From an uncultured Flavobacteriaceae bacterium (GTDB taxonomy: Bacteria > Bacteroidota > Bacteroidia > NS11-12g > UBA955), in the NCBI GenBank assembly GCA_964450355.1, contig CAYVDH010000002.1:1-59635 (forward strand): a DNA stretch of 59,635 nucleotides. The letters are read 5' to 3'. The notes beneath the pieces are model-generated. The model was not told the DNA's origin, ran no database searches, and was given only the letters and a program-made list of their open reading frames with translations. Shown piece by piece: positions 36,414-43,564 of this stretch (within the stretch, counting starts at the first letter, position 1; every line of letters starts with the position of its first letter). A program made the translations under genes and the position numbers.

Positions 36414-36438
36414 AGTGAGGGGCCGAAAGCCCCTCACT
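36414..36438 (+). promoter_or_regulatory. Perfect GC-rich 10-bp stem / 5-nt loop hairpin in the rimP 5' leader
   Basis: AGTGAGGGGC-cgaaa-GCCCCTCACT. It lies between the candidate promoter and the rimP ATG (36445) in otherwise very AT-rich DNA. Confidence 0.6.
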
Positions 36439-38471: not shown

Positions 38472-39152
38472 ATGAAAATTAAATATTGTCTTTTATTCGT
38501 CTTAATTTCAACAAAATTAAATGCTCAAAAATTCAATTATGAATTAAAATTATTGAACAGCACTCAGTACTTCAATCAAAAAAACTCGAATTCGAGTCGA
38601 TTTGAAAACCAAGGTAACTACTTTCAAATATTAAAATTAACACCAGGCATTTCAATTCAAAAAGGAAACAATGAACTGGATGTAATCCTTACTGATTTAA
38701 GGTTCAATAAAAACAATGTAAAAAACTCGTATGCAATAGATTCTATTAATATTGCTGAGCAAAACACGAAAAACACTTCTTTTAATTTTGGACTGTTTAT
38801 TGCACCTTATGTAAAATTATTAAGATCAAAAAATGAAAAAACAGTCTTTGCTTTTGCATGCATTTTGTCATCTAATTACCAACTTTTAACCAGTACTCCA
38901 GAAGTTGGATTTAAAACTAAAATGACTTCATTTTCATTCAATGGTTTTATTGCGCCAAAGGTGAAATTTAAAATCAAAGAAACTATCAGTTTTGAAATCA
39001 ATACTCCAATTCAAATTTTTGGTACGAACGAAACCAAAAATAGAGTGTACAATTCTCTTTTAAACAAATCACAACAAACCACATCCAATGTAGATTTCTC
39101 ACTTTTACCTCAACAAGTGATGATCAATTTTGGTTTGGGATTTAGGATATAA
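38472..39152 (+). CDS. Hypothetical small outer-membrane beta-barrel-like protein (226 aa)
   Basis: Signal peptide MKIKYCLLFVLISTKLNAQ. Alternating beta-strand-like pattern. The C-terminus is INFGLGFRI. Confidence 0.5.
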   Translation: MKIKYCLLFVLISTKLNAQKFNYELKLLNSTQYFNQKNSNSSRFENQGNYFQILKLTPGISIQKGNNELDVILTDLRFNKNNVKNSYAIDSINIAEQNTKNTSFNFGLFIAPYVKLLRSKNEKTVFAFACILSSNYQLLTSTPEVGFKTKMTSFSFNGFIAPKVKFKIKETISFEINTPIQIFGTNETKNRVYNSLLNKSQQTTSNVDFSLLPQQVMINFGLGFRI

Positions 39153-39205
39153 GCACCCAATTTTGCAAATTCAAATATTAAAATGAAAACATAGCTAGTT
39201 TTCAA

Positions 39206-39213
39206 TATTTTTG
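39206..39213 (+). promoter_or_regulatory. Candidate -7 box (TATTTTTG, matches TAnnTTTG) for leuS
   Basis: The motif ends 12 nt before the leuS ATG at 39226. I found no clear -33 TTTG. Confidence 0.25.
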
Positions 39214-39225
39214 CATCTTGTAATT

Positions 39226-42200
39226 ATGTCGAATTATCATTTTAATGAAATAGAAAAAAACTGGCAAAAATTTTGGGCTGAAAACAAAACATTTAAAGCC
39301 GAAATTGATACTAACAAACCTAAATATTATGTGTTAGACATGTTTCCTTACCCTAGTGGTGCGGGTCTGCATGTTGGCCATCCTCTTGGTTATATAGCTA
39401 GTGATATAGTATCAAGATATAAACGACACAAAGGTTTTAATGTATTACACCCTATGGGTTATGATGCCTTTGGATTACCAGCTGAACAATACGCCATTCA
39501 AACAGGTCAACACCCTGCTATCACTACCGAGGAAAACATAAAAAGATACAGAGAACAATTAGATAGAATTGGATTTTCTTTTGATTGGGACAAAGAAATT
39601 AGAACTTCCGACCCTGAATATTATAAATGGACTCAATGGATTTTTATTCAATTGTTTAATTCATGGTACAATCCTGCTTTGGATAAAGCTGAACCTATAG
39701 ATAAGTTAATTAATCAATTTGAGAAGAATGGCTTGCAATCCGATGACTTACAATTTACGCCTGAAGAATGGAAACAATTTAATGAAAAAGAAAAATCAGA
39801 TATTTTATTGAATTTCAGATTGGCATTTTTGAGTGAAACAATGGTGAACTGGTGTCCAGCCTTGGGTTCGGTACTTGCTAACGATGAAATAAAAGATGGG
39901 GTTAGTGAGAGAGGAGGTTATCCTGTAGAAAGGAAATTGATGTTGCAATGGAGTTTGAGAATCTCTGCCTATGCAGAGAGGCTGTTAAATGATTTAGATG
40001 CTTTAGATTGGACAGAAAGCATAAAAGAAGCCCAAAGAAATTGGATTGGTAAAAGTGAAGGATGTTCAATTGAATTTAAGGTAGAAAATAGTGATACAAC
40101 AATTGAAGTTTTCACTACTCGTCCTGATACTGTATTTGGGGTTTCGTATTTAACTTTAGCTCCCGAAAATGAATTGGTTTTACAGCTTACTCATAAAGAT
40201 TATTTTAAGTCTGTATCAGATTACATTGATAAAACAAAAAAACGAAGTGAAAGAGAAAGGCAAGCAGATGTTAAAAATATCAGTGGTGAATTTACTGGGA
40301 CTTATGCCATTCACCCCTTTACTGGAAATAAAATTCCTATTTGGATTGGAGATTATGTTTTAGCTGGTTACGGAACAGGCGCAGTAATGGCAGTACCTGC
40401 TCATGACAGCAGAGATTTTAGTTTTGCAAAACATTTTAATTTGCCCATTTTACAAGTGGTAGAAGGAGTGGAACAAAACTTTTTAAAGGACTCAAAAGAG
40501 GGTGTTGATGAGGGAGCTGGTAAGAGGGTTGAAAGTCATTTAACCTCACCCCTAACCCCTCTCCAAAGGAGAGGGGAACAAGATTCAGATATTGAATTTG
40601 GTTATTATACTACAGATAAACAAACTTATTCAAAACTCATTGCCTTTGTTAAAGAAAATAGATCAAATCCAACTAAAGAAGAAGAGAAAATTTGGGAATT
40701 AATTAGAAATAGGCAAGTTAAAAATGCTAAATTCAGAAGACAACATATCATTGATAGATTTATTCCAGATTTTGTTTGTTTAGAGCTAAATTTAATTATA
40801 GAAATTGATGGTTTGATACATAGTCTTGAAGACAATATAATTTCAGATGAAGCAAGAACAAAAAGATTAAACGAATTAGGGTTTGAGGTTGTTAGATTTA
40901 CAAATGAAGAAGTGAACTCTAATATTGAAACAGTAATTTCAAAGTTAGAAAAAATTATTTCTGAAAAACAAACTTTCACCCCTTCTCCTTTGGAAAAGGG
41001 GCTGGGGGATGAGGTCAAAGAACCTTACGAATCCAAACAAGGCTTTATCATCAATTCTGACTTTTTGAATGGCTTGGAAGTAAAAGAGGCAATAAAAACT
41101 GTTATTCATGCGGTTGAAGAAAAGGGTATTGGTAAAGGAAAAACAAATTACAGATTGCGTGATGCCGTATTTGGTAGGCAAAGATATTGGGGCGAACCTA
41201 TTCCAGTGTATTATGAAAATGGAATACCAAAAACCATGAATGAAAAAGATTTGCCCTTGGTGTTGCCAGAAATTGATAAGTATTTACCTACAGAAACCGG
41301 AGAGCCGCCATTATCTAGGGCTAAGCAATGGGAATATCTCGGATGCCCTTTAGAGACAACTACTATGCCGGGTTGGGCAGGTTCATCTTGGTATTTTTTA
41401 AGATACATGGATTGCCATAATACCGAAGAATTTGTTTCAAAAAATGCAGTAGATTATTGGCAAAACATTGACTTGTATGTAGGCGGAAGTGAGCATGCCA
41501 CTGGGCATTTATTGTACTTCCGATTTTGGACTAAATTTTTACACGATTTAGGGTATTTGCCCTTCAAAGAACCAGCAAAAAAATTGGTGAATCAGGGGAT
41601 GATTCAGGGAATGTCAAGCATTATTTTTAGAGTAAATAATACCAATAAATTTATCTCATCAGGCTTGAAACATAATTATGAAACTTCATCAGTGTATGTA
41701 GATATAAACTTAGTTAAAAATAATGAAGTAGATATTGAAGCATTAAAAAAGTGGAGACCAACTGAATTTGAAAATGCCGAATTTGAATTTGAAAACAATG
41801 TTTTTCTTGCAACTTCAGAAGTAGGTAAAATGTCAAAACGATGGCACAATGTAGTCAATCCTGATGATGTTTGCAATGAATACGGAGCTGACACATTGCG
41901 CTTGTATGAAATGTTTTTGGGTCCGCTGCAAGATGCCAAACCATGGAGCACACAAGGGATTGAGGGAGTGTTAAGATTTTTGAGAAAACTGTGGCGTTTG
42001 TTTCATCAAGGTGAGAACGAGACTTTCTTACTATCAAATGATGAACCAAGTAAAGCAGAGTTAAAAATATTACATAAAACCATTAAAAAAGCCACCGAAG
42101 ACATCGAAGATTTCAGTTTTAACACCTCGGTCAGTGCGTTTATGGTTTGTGTGAATGAATTGCAAGAATTAAAATGCAATAAAAGACAAATTTTAGAACC

Positions 42201-42513
42201 AATAATCACATTATTGTCTCCTTATGCTCCACATATATGTGAGGAACTTTGGTCATTATCTGGTCATAATGGTTCAATAGAGTACCAAGAATGGCCTCAG
42301 TTTAATGCAGAGTATTTAGTAGAAAACGAATTCAATTATCCTATTTCATTCAATGGCAAAGTGCGTTTTAATATGTTGTTTGCTTTAGACAAAGACACCA
42401 AAGAAATAGAAAATGAAGTATTAGCCAACGAACAAACTATAAAATATTTAGAGGGCAAAACACCCAAAAAAATCATTGTTGTAAAAGGTAGAATTGTGAA
42501 TGTGGTGGTTTAG
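39226..42513 (+). CDS. leuS: Leucine--tRNA ligase (LeuRS) carrying an in-frame ~170-codon insertion
   Basis: Class I motifs: [16 protein letters not shown] (HIGH-type) and [10 protein letters not shown] (KMSKS). The conserved core includes [21 protein letters not shown] prefer the ATG at 39226 ([17 protein letters not shown]). The reading frame is continuous through the insertion. Confidence 0.95.
40500..41020 (+). mobile_element. DUF559 / Vsr-like (PD-(D/E)xK) endonuclease domain plus flanking GC-rich hairpin repeats, inserted in frame within leuS
   Basis: [79 protein letters not shown] matches the DUF559 consensus as I remember it. The flanks are cccctctcc-aaa-ggagagggg (40556-40576) and ccccttctcctttggaaaaggggctgggggatgaggtc (~40979-41016). 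Boundaries are approximate. Confidence 0.7.
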
Positions 42514-42565
42514 AAGATTATCTTCTATCATAATATTTTTTACGTAAATGAGTTATTACAAATAG

Positions 42566-43564
42566 ATGACTAAGAAAATTATTTATCTATCTGTAACAAT
42601 TTTGTTTAATTTGAATATACTAAAAGCACAATTTGGGAAAATTCATTACATCATTGAGTACAATAAACATGGCGACACATTGGCTTGTTATGAATACAAT
42701 AAAAGGGGGTTAATAAAGAATGTAAAATTATACCATAATGAGAACCAGTTTATGTTTGTTGACAAACTACTAAAGACTCATCTTTATTATGAATTTATTT
42801 ACATCGATAGTAATGAATTTTCAATTCTAACAAAGGAAATTGAATATGGATTTATTGAGAAACATTCTTTTTGCACATGTTCTGACCCATATTGTGATAT
42901 AGATGGGTGTAGTCAGATTGAAATTGAATTGAACATCCCATATATAGAATCCATAACAGAATATTTTTACTCAAAGGAGCTGGAATTTAAATTTAGTAAA
43001 AGAACTAACTATGATACTGGGCGTTATATATATTCAAATTGTTATTCAGATAGTTGTTTAGAGAAATATAAAAAAAGTAATATGAAGATGAATTTTCAAG
43101 ATTATGATTTTATTAGTGAAAAAGGGTATAATAAGGTCGAAATTAGAAACGATAAAAATTTTAAAACCGATATTATCAAATCTATTGAATTTACTACAGT
43201 GTTCTCAAAAAATGAATTTTATAATTTACATATATGGAAAATTTGTGATTGCCCAGATATAAAAGACATATATGATACCTTAGAAACTGGGGAATTTAAT
43301 TTTTATAAAGATACAAACAATAATTACTATGGGTTATCTGATAAATACGGTAAAATTATTCTTAAAGATAGAATGCCATGTTGTAATAATCAATCAAAAC
43401 ATAATCAATTGATATTTTATAATTACAATCCCACTAAAACAGAAAATGGATATAATATAAAAATAAGCCCATTTTTTATAGATCAATATCCTCAAAAGGA
43501 CATAATAAAAAAAATCAGGTCAACTAAAAAAAGCAAATTAAAAATCAAAAGGTATTTATTTTGA
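42566..43564 (+). CDS. Hypothetical secreted protein (332 aa)
   Basis: Signal peptide MTKKIIYLSVTILFNLNILKAQ. Lys/Tyr/Asn-rich with several Cys. No recognisable family. Confidence 0.5.
   Translation: MTKKIIYLSVTILFNLNILKAQFGKIHYIIEYNKHGDTLACYEYNKRGLIKNVKLYHNENQFMFVDKLLKTHLYYEFIYIDSNEFSILTKEIEYGFIEKHSFCTCSDPYCDIDGCSQIEIELNIPYIESITEYFYSKELEFKFSKRTNYDTGRYIYSNCYSDSCLEKYKKSNMKMNFQDYDFISEKGYNKVEIRNDKNFKTDIIKSIEFTTVFSKNEFYNLHIWKICDCPDIKDIYDTLETGEFNFYKDTNNNYYGLSDKYGKIILKDRMPCCNNQSKHNQLIFYNYNPTKTENGYNIKISPFFIDQYPQKDIIKKIRSTKKSKLKIKRYLF

Follow-up and report, generated by a model that had tools for sequence, protein, structure and literature searches.

Among described systems, the closest on the side of the enzyme are the EDxHD/Vsr-like homing endonucleases of the 'fractured gene' type, such as I-Bth0305I, which reside within group I introns or inteins or sit between the halves of split inteins, and which bear NUMOD or helix-turn-helix (HTH) DNA-binding domains (PMC3239194; PMC2677866). 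The element considered here lies in the leuS gene (leucine--tRNA ligase, hereinafter LeuRS) of an uncultured Flavobacteriaceae bacterium (contig CAYVDH010000002.1, positions 1 to 59,635; this 59.6-kb stretch in its entirety is the window of the following text). It has in common with these enzymes the nuclease fold and the EDxHD residues, along with the apparent lifestyle of a selfish gene in a conserved host; however, it has neither a splicing vehicle nor a NUMOD/HTH domain, is read through in frame, and is bounded by terminal inverted repeats. Inteins are likewise in-frame selfish insertions in housekeeping proteins that often carry an endonuclease, whereas the leuS element lacks the Hint fold and the splice residues, appears to undergo no excision, and occupies variable loops rather than conserved active-site motifs. 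A further parallel is offered by ShiLan, an unspliced, in-frame and actively homing insert of a phage methylase, whose HNH nuclease is encoded in another frame (PMC11855218). Each is an insertion of the homing type, distinct from inteins and introns alike, that the host protein tolerates as an in-frame loop; in the leuS element, by contrast, the nuclease is itself the in-frame domain and belongs to another family, structured inverted repeats are present, and the hosts are cellular and spread over several phyla.

On the side of the repeats, the counterparts are different ones. The BoxC/PIT repeats have been known since the 1990s, and their origin and means of spread have been a long-standing puzzle; earlier work on their intrastrand triplexes is said to have come from Hoyne and Maher (2000, 2002), followed by that of Holder et al. 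In vitro, E. coli sequences of the motif (BoxC/PIT/TMECO) form a stable triplex and block polymerases; the TMECO copies mark local zones of genomic variability with no mobility genes nearby, and the published repeats were described as strictly intergenic with no function or mobility gene attached to them (Holder et al., 2015; PMC4666352). The ends of the leuS element follow this plan of three blocks, with a nearly identical sequence, but they flank a nuclease gene, are translated within an ORF (open reading frame), and are found in Bacteroidota and other phyla as well. The REP/REPIN-RAYT systems also place a gene between inverted, short structured repeats that occur solo too. RAYT is an HUH/Y1 enzyme acting on single-stranded hairpins, and REPs are extragenic; DUF559, in contrast, is a PD-(D/E)xK hydrolase and not a Y1_Tnp protein, the gene itself moves, and copies lie within coding sequence. 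[quoted passage not shown] RPEs encode no protein, whereas the autonomous form of the leuS element carries a predicted folded nuclease domain. With insertion sequence (IS)/MITE-type elements the leuS element has terminal inverted repeats in common, yet it has no transposase.

The leuS gene occupies 39226..42513 on the + strand and encodes 1095 aa from the ATG at 39226 (protein P0121), the insert being included in a single frame; the ORF as a whole (39211..42513) extends for 1100 codons without a stop. Its product scores 944.9 bits against TIGR00396, the equivalog model of bacterial LeuRS, and Pfam recognizes the LeuRS editing domain at aa 276-443 in addition to the class I synthetase and anticodon-binding domains. 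The sequence-only reading had proposed that a DUF559/Vsr-like domain is embedded in this uninterrupted gene, and the profile search bears it out: DUF559 (PF04480) is recovered at aa 478-581 of the 1100-aa frame (e-value 4.9e-29; a score of 100.8 bits where the cut-off is 20.6; positions 5-106 of the 109 in the profile covered), following which the TIGR00396 match picks up again, with aa 601-1100 corresponding to profile positions 363-842. DUF559 and MTES_1575 are the only Pfam matches within the insert, and the NCBIfam model PRK09767 (YcjD) matches it with an e-value of 5e-19, yet under its equivalog cut-off. DNA and protein alignments with the syntenic empty alleles L001 and L086 place the whole inserted segment at 40468..41016 (+ strand; aa 415-597). 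Relative to L001, the closest empty syntenic leuS allele, the stretch from FAKHF to NSDFL lengthens from 108 nt in the empty gene to 645 nt in the window, a gain of 537 nt or 179 codons that agrees with the approximately 170 codons at 40500-41020 estimated at the outset. The insert is also set apart by its GC fraction, 0.25-0.29 against 0.35-0.40 in flanking leuS. Its position had been read as a linker following the editing domain; alignments with the LeuRS of Thermus thermophilus (2V0C/1H3N) and with editing-domain constructs that have been crystallised instead place it inside CP1, in a variable loop of the C-terminal part of this editing domain (~residues 364-378 of the T. thermophilus enzyme), about 45 residues ahead of NYRLRD. 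The host parts of the gene are under purifying selection, with dN/dS of 0.03-0.09 in most host comparisons (Nei-Gojobori).

Two further features of the gene may be recorded at this point. An antisense ORF of 130 codons (40626-41018, - strand) spans the insert and has as its start the right terminal repeat read in reverse; in all likelihood the palindromic ends and the AT-rich codons give rise to it incidentally, and it is not a gene. Secondly, two close orthologs (P0125 and P0130) have, in place of the leucine-specific-domain region, an unrelated segment of ~100-130 aa (SPFLRGVHTV...YFPNKF; alignment columns ~1130-1300, equivalent to ~41600-41900 of the window), which is a second and different variable insertion in leuS.

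The distribution of the DUF559 module among LeuRS alleles is that of a mobile insertion. Aligning 18 close LeuRS orthologs (74-87% identity) shows the following: the site occupied in the window (site B) is filled in the window itself, P0122, P0125 and P0127; a different loop at the start of CP1 (site A) is filled in P0123, P0124, P0126, P0130, P0131 and P0137; and the module is absent from P0128, P0129, P0132, P0134, P0138, P0140, P0147 and P0151. With close orthologs devoid of it, the segment is not a universal lineage-specific loop. The syntenic genomic loci display the same variety, with L086 empty, L004 filled at site B, L085 filled at site A, and L087 filled at site A with a solo repeat at a third site in addition. 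The leuS genes of L086 (empty) and L004 (filled) are 99.0% identical over 2,736 shared columns, and other than 67 single-nucleotide polymorphisms over 6.6 kb, the sole difference between these loci is a 567-nt insert. Furthermore, the modules of L004 and L085, despite lying at different sites, are identical at 364/370 nt (98.4%) as against 93.6% for their host genes, whereas between L004 and L087 the host dS is 0.155 and the module dS 0.81; therefore, the histories of module and host disagree in both directions. The insert is thus a mobile insertion at the level of DNA, polymorphic between near-identical strains, and not a loop of the lineage.

The most informative feature of the insert, which the sequence-only reading overlooked, is the pair of inverted repeats that bounds it, where none would be expected by chance. 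The left terminal inverted repeat, a BoxC/PIT-type three-block unit at 40544..40576 (- strand), reads CCTCACCCC TAA CCCCTCTCC AAA GGAGAGGGG on the + strand and is translated into 11 aa; the right one, at 40979..41014 (+ strand), has the opposite orientation, is slightly decayed (CCCCTTCTCC TTT GGAAAAGGGG CT GGGGGATGAGG), and is translated as well. These repeats of ~33 nt have 28-nt arms (40549-40576 and 40980-41007) that are 79% complementary, and account for two of only five 30-mers with a GC content of at least 63% in a window of 31.5% GC. We found the ends to show the layout of the triplex motif, namely a C-rich stem, a loop, the complementary G-rich stem, a short loop and a mirror G-rich stem: a strict motif (8-nt stems with at most one mismatch) is present at 40544-40575 on the - strand, and the same blocks recur at the right end with more mismatches. 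The left end conforms to the published consensus CCCTCNCCC N3-6 GGGNGAGGG N3 GGGNGAGGG, and its reverse complement, CCCCTCTCC TTT GGAGAGGGG TTA GGGGTGAGG, may be set beside the E. coli type A motif, CCCTCTCCC N3-6 GGGAGAGGG TTA GGGTGAGGG (PMC4666352). The right end of the window element is also seen in L003, L004, L005, L085 and L087. We considered and rejected a cut-and-paste at a palindromic, restriction-like site in which the palindrome is duplicated: each loop of the left hairpin is the reverse complement of its counterpart on the right (AAA/TTT, CAA/TTG, TCA/TGA), which makes the ends inverted and not direct copies. Besides these, the window has a single GC-rich perfect hairpin, GTGAGGGGCCGAAAGCCCCTCAC at 36415-36437 upstream of nusA, and it is not of the triplex type.

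To the left of the left repeat lies a flank of 26 codons (40468..40543, + strand) whose translation is a predicted disordered linker. Within this flank, GATGAGG (40507-40513) forms a 7-nt direct repeat with the right-end tail at 41008-41014. These extra codons also hold GATGAGGGAGCTGG, which resembles a decayed repeat tail. Because homologous left extensions (..SSDGEKD(T/S)HL(T/A)SPLTPLQ) are found in L004 and L085, the mobile unit may extend ~40 nt past the left inverted repeat. Empty sites of leuS read GGTGGGGATGTTTCTATTGAGGTA and GGCGATGAGGCCCTC. At site A of L085 the element is preceded by GGCGATGAGGCTCTA and followed by GGGGATGAGGCCCTC, as against the single copy of GGCGATGAGGCCCTC in empty alleles, such that a 15-nt direct repeat present once in the empty site flanks the element. 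It has the look of a target duplication; since it overlaps the tail of the element itself, however, microhomology-guided insertion would account for it equally well.

The repeats also occur without the nuclease. The right-end unit alone, 36 nt long, stands in frame in L003 (site B) and L087 (site C) as well as in several further orthologs; altogether, solo repeats were detected at sites B, C and D of leuS, in other ORFs and in intergenic DNA. A metagenome scan with the exact unit recovered 15 loci, some of them intergenic and the rest in long ORFs, where one and the same reading frame is used throughout. In the metagenomic leuS of L105 (L105:3548-7405; Ga0302280_1001077), the 1286-aa product contains three solo units in addition to DUF559 modules at both site A and site C; the five insertions are at five different loops, all of them in frame, with solo readings that include SPLLWRGAGGEA. 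Simple deletion between the hairpins is not supported as the source of the solos, those of L003 and L087 being without the left tail.

The module between the repeats (FGYYTT...ISEKQ; 40597..40971, + strand) was assigned to the Vsr-like PD-(D/E)xK fold of the EDxHD type by Pfam, PDB, AlphaFold2 and Foldseek comparisons, the Pfam e-value for the module being 3.6e-30. An alignment of 54 DUF559 sequences has 19 invariant columns, every one of which is kept in it, including D515, E526, D528, H532 and D541, in keeping with the initial observation that the acidic signature residues are retained; with E486, these make up the candidate catalytic residues. E486, D515, D528, H532 and D541, which are invariant in the 54 sequences, align with E170, D196, N208, H213 and D222 of I-Bth0305I, four of them directly and H532 off by one residue from the EDxHD catalytic position. 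Sequence searches matched the module to PDB 3HRL (e-value 6e-16) and weakly to I-Bth0305I (3R3P). An AlphaFold2 model of the module built from the 54-sequence alignment attains a pLDDT of 80-94 in the core and 43-58 in both flanks, the N-terminal flank being predicted as disordered, and a Foldseek search with it recovered 3HRL (TM 0.89, rmsd 1.7 A), I-Bth0305I (3R3P; TM 0.82) and Vsr (1CW0). In a model of the full-length protein, which we used solely to contrast linkers with core, the LeuRS core is confident, whereas aa 416-463 (pLDDT 22-27) and aa 584-594 (below 50), the translated repeat regions, are not. Judging from Nei-Gojobori estimates the module is under purifying selection, with dN/dS of 0.04-0.2; synonymous sites are partly saturated, yet the contrast between pN (0.09-0.17) and pS (0.58-0.74) is unambiguous. 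Taken together, the comparisons and models point to an intact nuclease domain on flexible linkers. It is the only protein domain that the insert encodes; Pfam searches found no DDE, HUH or serine/tyrosine transposase in it.

The architecture is not peculiar to this organism. The sequence-only reading knew of no described case, and we too found no description of in-frame DUF559 insertions, of a LeuRS-DUF559 protein, or of a link between DUF559/YcjD and BoxC/PIT in full-text searches of a collection that does not cover all journals. PF04480 is present in ~60 of the 120 best LeuRS matches, and one JGI record is even named 'leucyl-tRNA synthetase/very-short-patch-repair endonuclease'. When the genomic data are limited to one genome per species, the 35 closest relatives of the module share 44-75% identity with it, and all but one of them are embedded in long ORFs that continue for hundreds of codons to either side, the 35th being interrupted by a contig end; remoter relatives are mostly free-standing ORFs of 120-150 aa. 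Hosts of embedded modules include LeuRS (sites A and B), ValRS, MetH (at least three positions), RecG, UvrC, HsdR, TGT, two CoA-transferases, an M23 peptidase, MeaB, RimM and chorismate synthase, to which a word-indexed search added IspG, WecB, RNase HI, GNAT, an alpha/beta hydrolase and guanylate kinase. The LeuRS site A module was recovered in Chitinophaga and two Patescibacteria too, and isolate genomes with embedded copies comprise those of Lutibacter flavus DSM 27993 (MetH) and Flavivirga sp. 57AJ16 (RecG). An exhaustive HMMER search retrieved 19,050 clusters (50% identity) at E<=1e-3; among the best 150 representatives ~61 (~40%) are longer than 250 aa, and 54 long representatives match 70 Pfam families in total, with DUF559 and related families counted in. 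Some proteins hold several modules (P0241, P0244, P0248, P0258), e.g., a 1214-aa Eco57I-type methylase with two and a 377-aa protein with three. A phage origin was examined and rejected: the relatives in viral contigs are all distant and partial (at most 45% identity), and the PHROGs and PADLOC matches were weak and uninformative.

The association between the triplex motif and DUF559 extends well beyond leuS. A strict three-block search of 80 genome loci recovered 75 motifs in the 39 kb lying within 250 nt of DUF559 modules (41/80 loci), as against 15 in the 463 kb more than 500 nt away from them, i.e., densities of 1.92 and 0.032 per kb or a 60-fold enrichment. The usual arrangement is one motif on each side of the DUF559 gene in inverted orientation, and the pattern is seen in Bacteroidota, Chloroflexota, Alpha-proteobacteria, Ignavibacteriota, Patescibacteria and others. 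In E. coli K-12 (NC_000913.3), TMECO no. 9 (1351239-1351204; Table 1 of PMC4666352) lies 165 nt downstream of the DUF559 gene ycjD, and a decayed TMECO copy overlaps the 3' end of ycjD (L116:7200-7440); neither 'endonuclease' nor 'ycjD' occurs in the main text of that paper. Among 5,426 complete E. coli genomes, 3,378 contain the ycjD region and 4,605 the TMECO 36-mer, at 1-11 places. As a tentative proposal, it is plausible that the BoxC/PIT/TMECO repeats have their cognate nucleases in the DUF559 proteins (in E. coli, YcjD), and that the two together form an unrecognised pan-bacterial class of mobile elements with triplex-forming inverted repeats, structure-targeted cleavage followed by repair, and a unique, splicing-free colonisation of essential genes, in which the repeats would yield flexible linkers on translation and the nuclease would fold into an inert domain within the host protein. 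As a separate observation, when flanks in L066, L072, L053, L056 and L084 were compared with those in L018, L034 and L042, the mirror G-stem tails were seen to point outward in embedded Bacteroidota copies and inward in several free-standing ones (Dehalococcoidia, Doudnabacteria and an alphaproteobacterium).

For the leuS insert itself, we consider it probable that it is a selfish mobile DNA element, a DUF559 nuclease cassette with triplex-motif ends that is copied into empty alleles in a homing-like manner. The cassette of ~0.5 kb encodes the DUF559 endonuclease alone, between ~33-nt inverted ends that each combine a hairpin with a mirror repeat. It could survive in leuS without RNA or protein splicing by virtue of lying in a surface loop of CP1, having no stop, and preserving the reading frame of the host to its left and right; the peptides that the repeats encode, rich in G/P/S, would serve as disordered linkers, with the nuclease folding as an independent domain that LeuRS tolerates. 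The nuclease may nick or cut at or near its cognate triplex/hairpin motif, or at a tail resembling GGNGATGAGG, whereupon recombinational repair would copy the cassette into empty alleles and, rarely, into new sites that hold a solo repeat or microhomology with the tail. In essential genes the survivors would be insertions in frame, in sense orientation and in permissive loops, and survival of such insertions alone would result in the uniform reading frame of the repeats. Of the three readings with which the sequence-only reading had closed, a tolerated mobile insertion and a new homing arrangement are hence the favored ones, on account of the presence and absence at the level of strains, the second site in leuS, the terminal inverted repeats and the many unrelated host genes, while the third, a domesticated appendage, is opposed by the evidence taken up below.

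Several points weigh against this explanation. A PD-(D/E)xK hydrolase alone cannot carry out strand transfer, and true transposition would need host functions; that the nuclease drives the movement of the cassette is something we infer from sequence. No NUMOD-type DNA-binding domain, as used by I-Bth0305I, is evident to Pfam in the embedded nuclease. Around the L004 insertion there is no long co-conversion tract of the kind that homing from a divergent donor might leave, the signal of target duplication is clear in L085 alone and weak or absent elsewhere (L087, L003), and no further repeat or DUF559 copy exists elsewhere in the window. Moreover, the translation of the insert into the mature LeuRS is deduced from frame conservation and selection, and the pLDDT of the module in the full-length AlphaFold2 model is just 39-74, this moderate confidence being due to the few aligned sequences that carry the module at site B.

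The rival account that fares best accepts that the cassette is mobile but does not see DUF559 as its mover: replication would stall at the repeats themselves, and template switching or illegitimate recombination would follow, so that whatever DNA lies between two repeats could be carried to new places. DUF559 would be a passenger with some other nuclease role, e.g., in the repair or processing of structures, or in defence. The block that TMECO motifs pose to polymerases and the zones of variability around them with no mobility genes nearby are in its favor (PMC4666352), as are junctions that show microhomology with the tail (GGNGATGAGG) in lieu of a target duplication of fixed length, and the excess of E. 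coli genomes with TMECO (4605) over those with ycjD (3378). However, the linkage of motif and gene across very distant phyla, usually with an inverted repeat on each side, and the 60-fold enrichment, is better accommodated by a cognate pair, and the purifying selection on the nuclease even when embedded also argues against a mere passenger. We therefore regard this account as unlikely, though deserving of consideration.

A second alternative takes DUF559 to be a domesticated appendage of LeuRS, kept for the benefit of the host in nucleic-acid binding, tRNA handling or regulation. Aminoacyl-tRNA synthetases do acquire appended domains, the module in leuS shows strong purifying selection and conserved active-site residues, and the arrangement recurs in many Bacteroidota and even in the LeuRS of Patescibacteria. 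Against this stand 99% identical alleles without the module, the use of different loops in close relatives, and the same module in enzymes unconnected with RNA, such as MetH, the M23 peptidase, the CoA transferases and chorismate synthase, along with the transposon-like inverted repeats and the discordant histories of module and host; we accordingly judge a domesticated origin to be very improbable.

It is no more credible that the insert is removed before the enzyme matures, be it as an atypical intein or through an intron-like, hairpin-guided excision of RNA by repeat pairing. Pairing of the two ends in the mRNA is conceivable given their complementarity (28 nt, 79%), and Vsr-like EDxHD nucleases are indeed known in introns and inteins (PMC2677866; PMC3239194). 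On the other hand, Pfam detects no Hint/intein domain, and the junctions (..VVEG|VEQN.. and ..GDEV|KEPY..) are without splice residues, as had been noticed from the letters alone; nor did Rfam searches recover any intron family at E<=1 in 39000-42700 (a single chance snoRNA match was below threshold) or, anywhere in the window, any family at its gathering score or a tRNA gene. On the basis of the Rfam searches (permissive for leuS, at gathering thresholds for the window) and the absence of Hint from the Pfam results, the intron and intein readings were rejected. Furthermore, essentially all close relatives, in dozens of host genes, stay in frame through the 3' junction, which RNA excision would not need, and the solo repeats are likewise confined to one frame. 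Finally, a chimeric assembly or a minority allele, conceivable in that the window comes from one single contig, can be dismissed in view of the same site-B arrangement in independent ENA, NCBI and JGI assemblies (L004, L005, P0125, P0127), the embedded copies in isolate genomes, and the codon-level conservation across both junctions.

These results suggest an undescribed way for selfish DNA to inhabit essential genes: in addition to introns and inteins there would be a third route by which a selfish endonuclease gene can reside in them, namely translation as a tolerated domain, and this route appears to be common. The element in leuS is best classed as a selfish endonuclease element of conserved genes, and the larger claim, that DUF559 and BoxC/PIT constitute a cognate, pan-bacterial mobile system, is plausible. 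It would link an orphan protein family (~19,000 clusters at 50% identity, with YcjD in E. coli) to the orphan BoxC/PIT repeats and provide a testable hypothesis for both. For annotation, the embedded elements mean that long 'fusions' of LeuRS, MetH, RecG and the like are insertion alleles and not new enzymes; and the sites and linkers that these elements use may be seen as natural permissive sites and linker designs for the insertion of domains into LeuRS and other enzymes.

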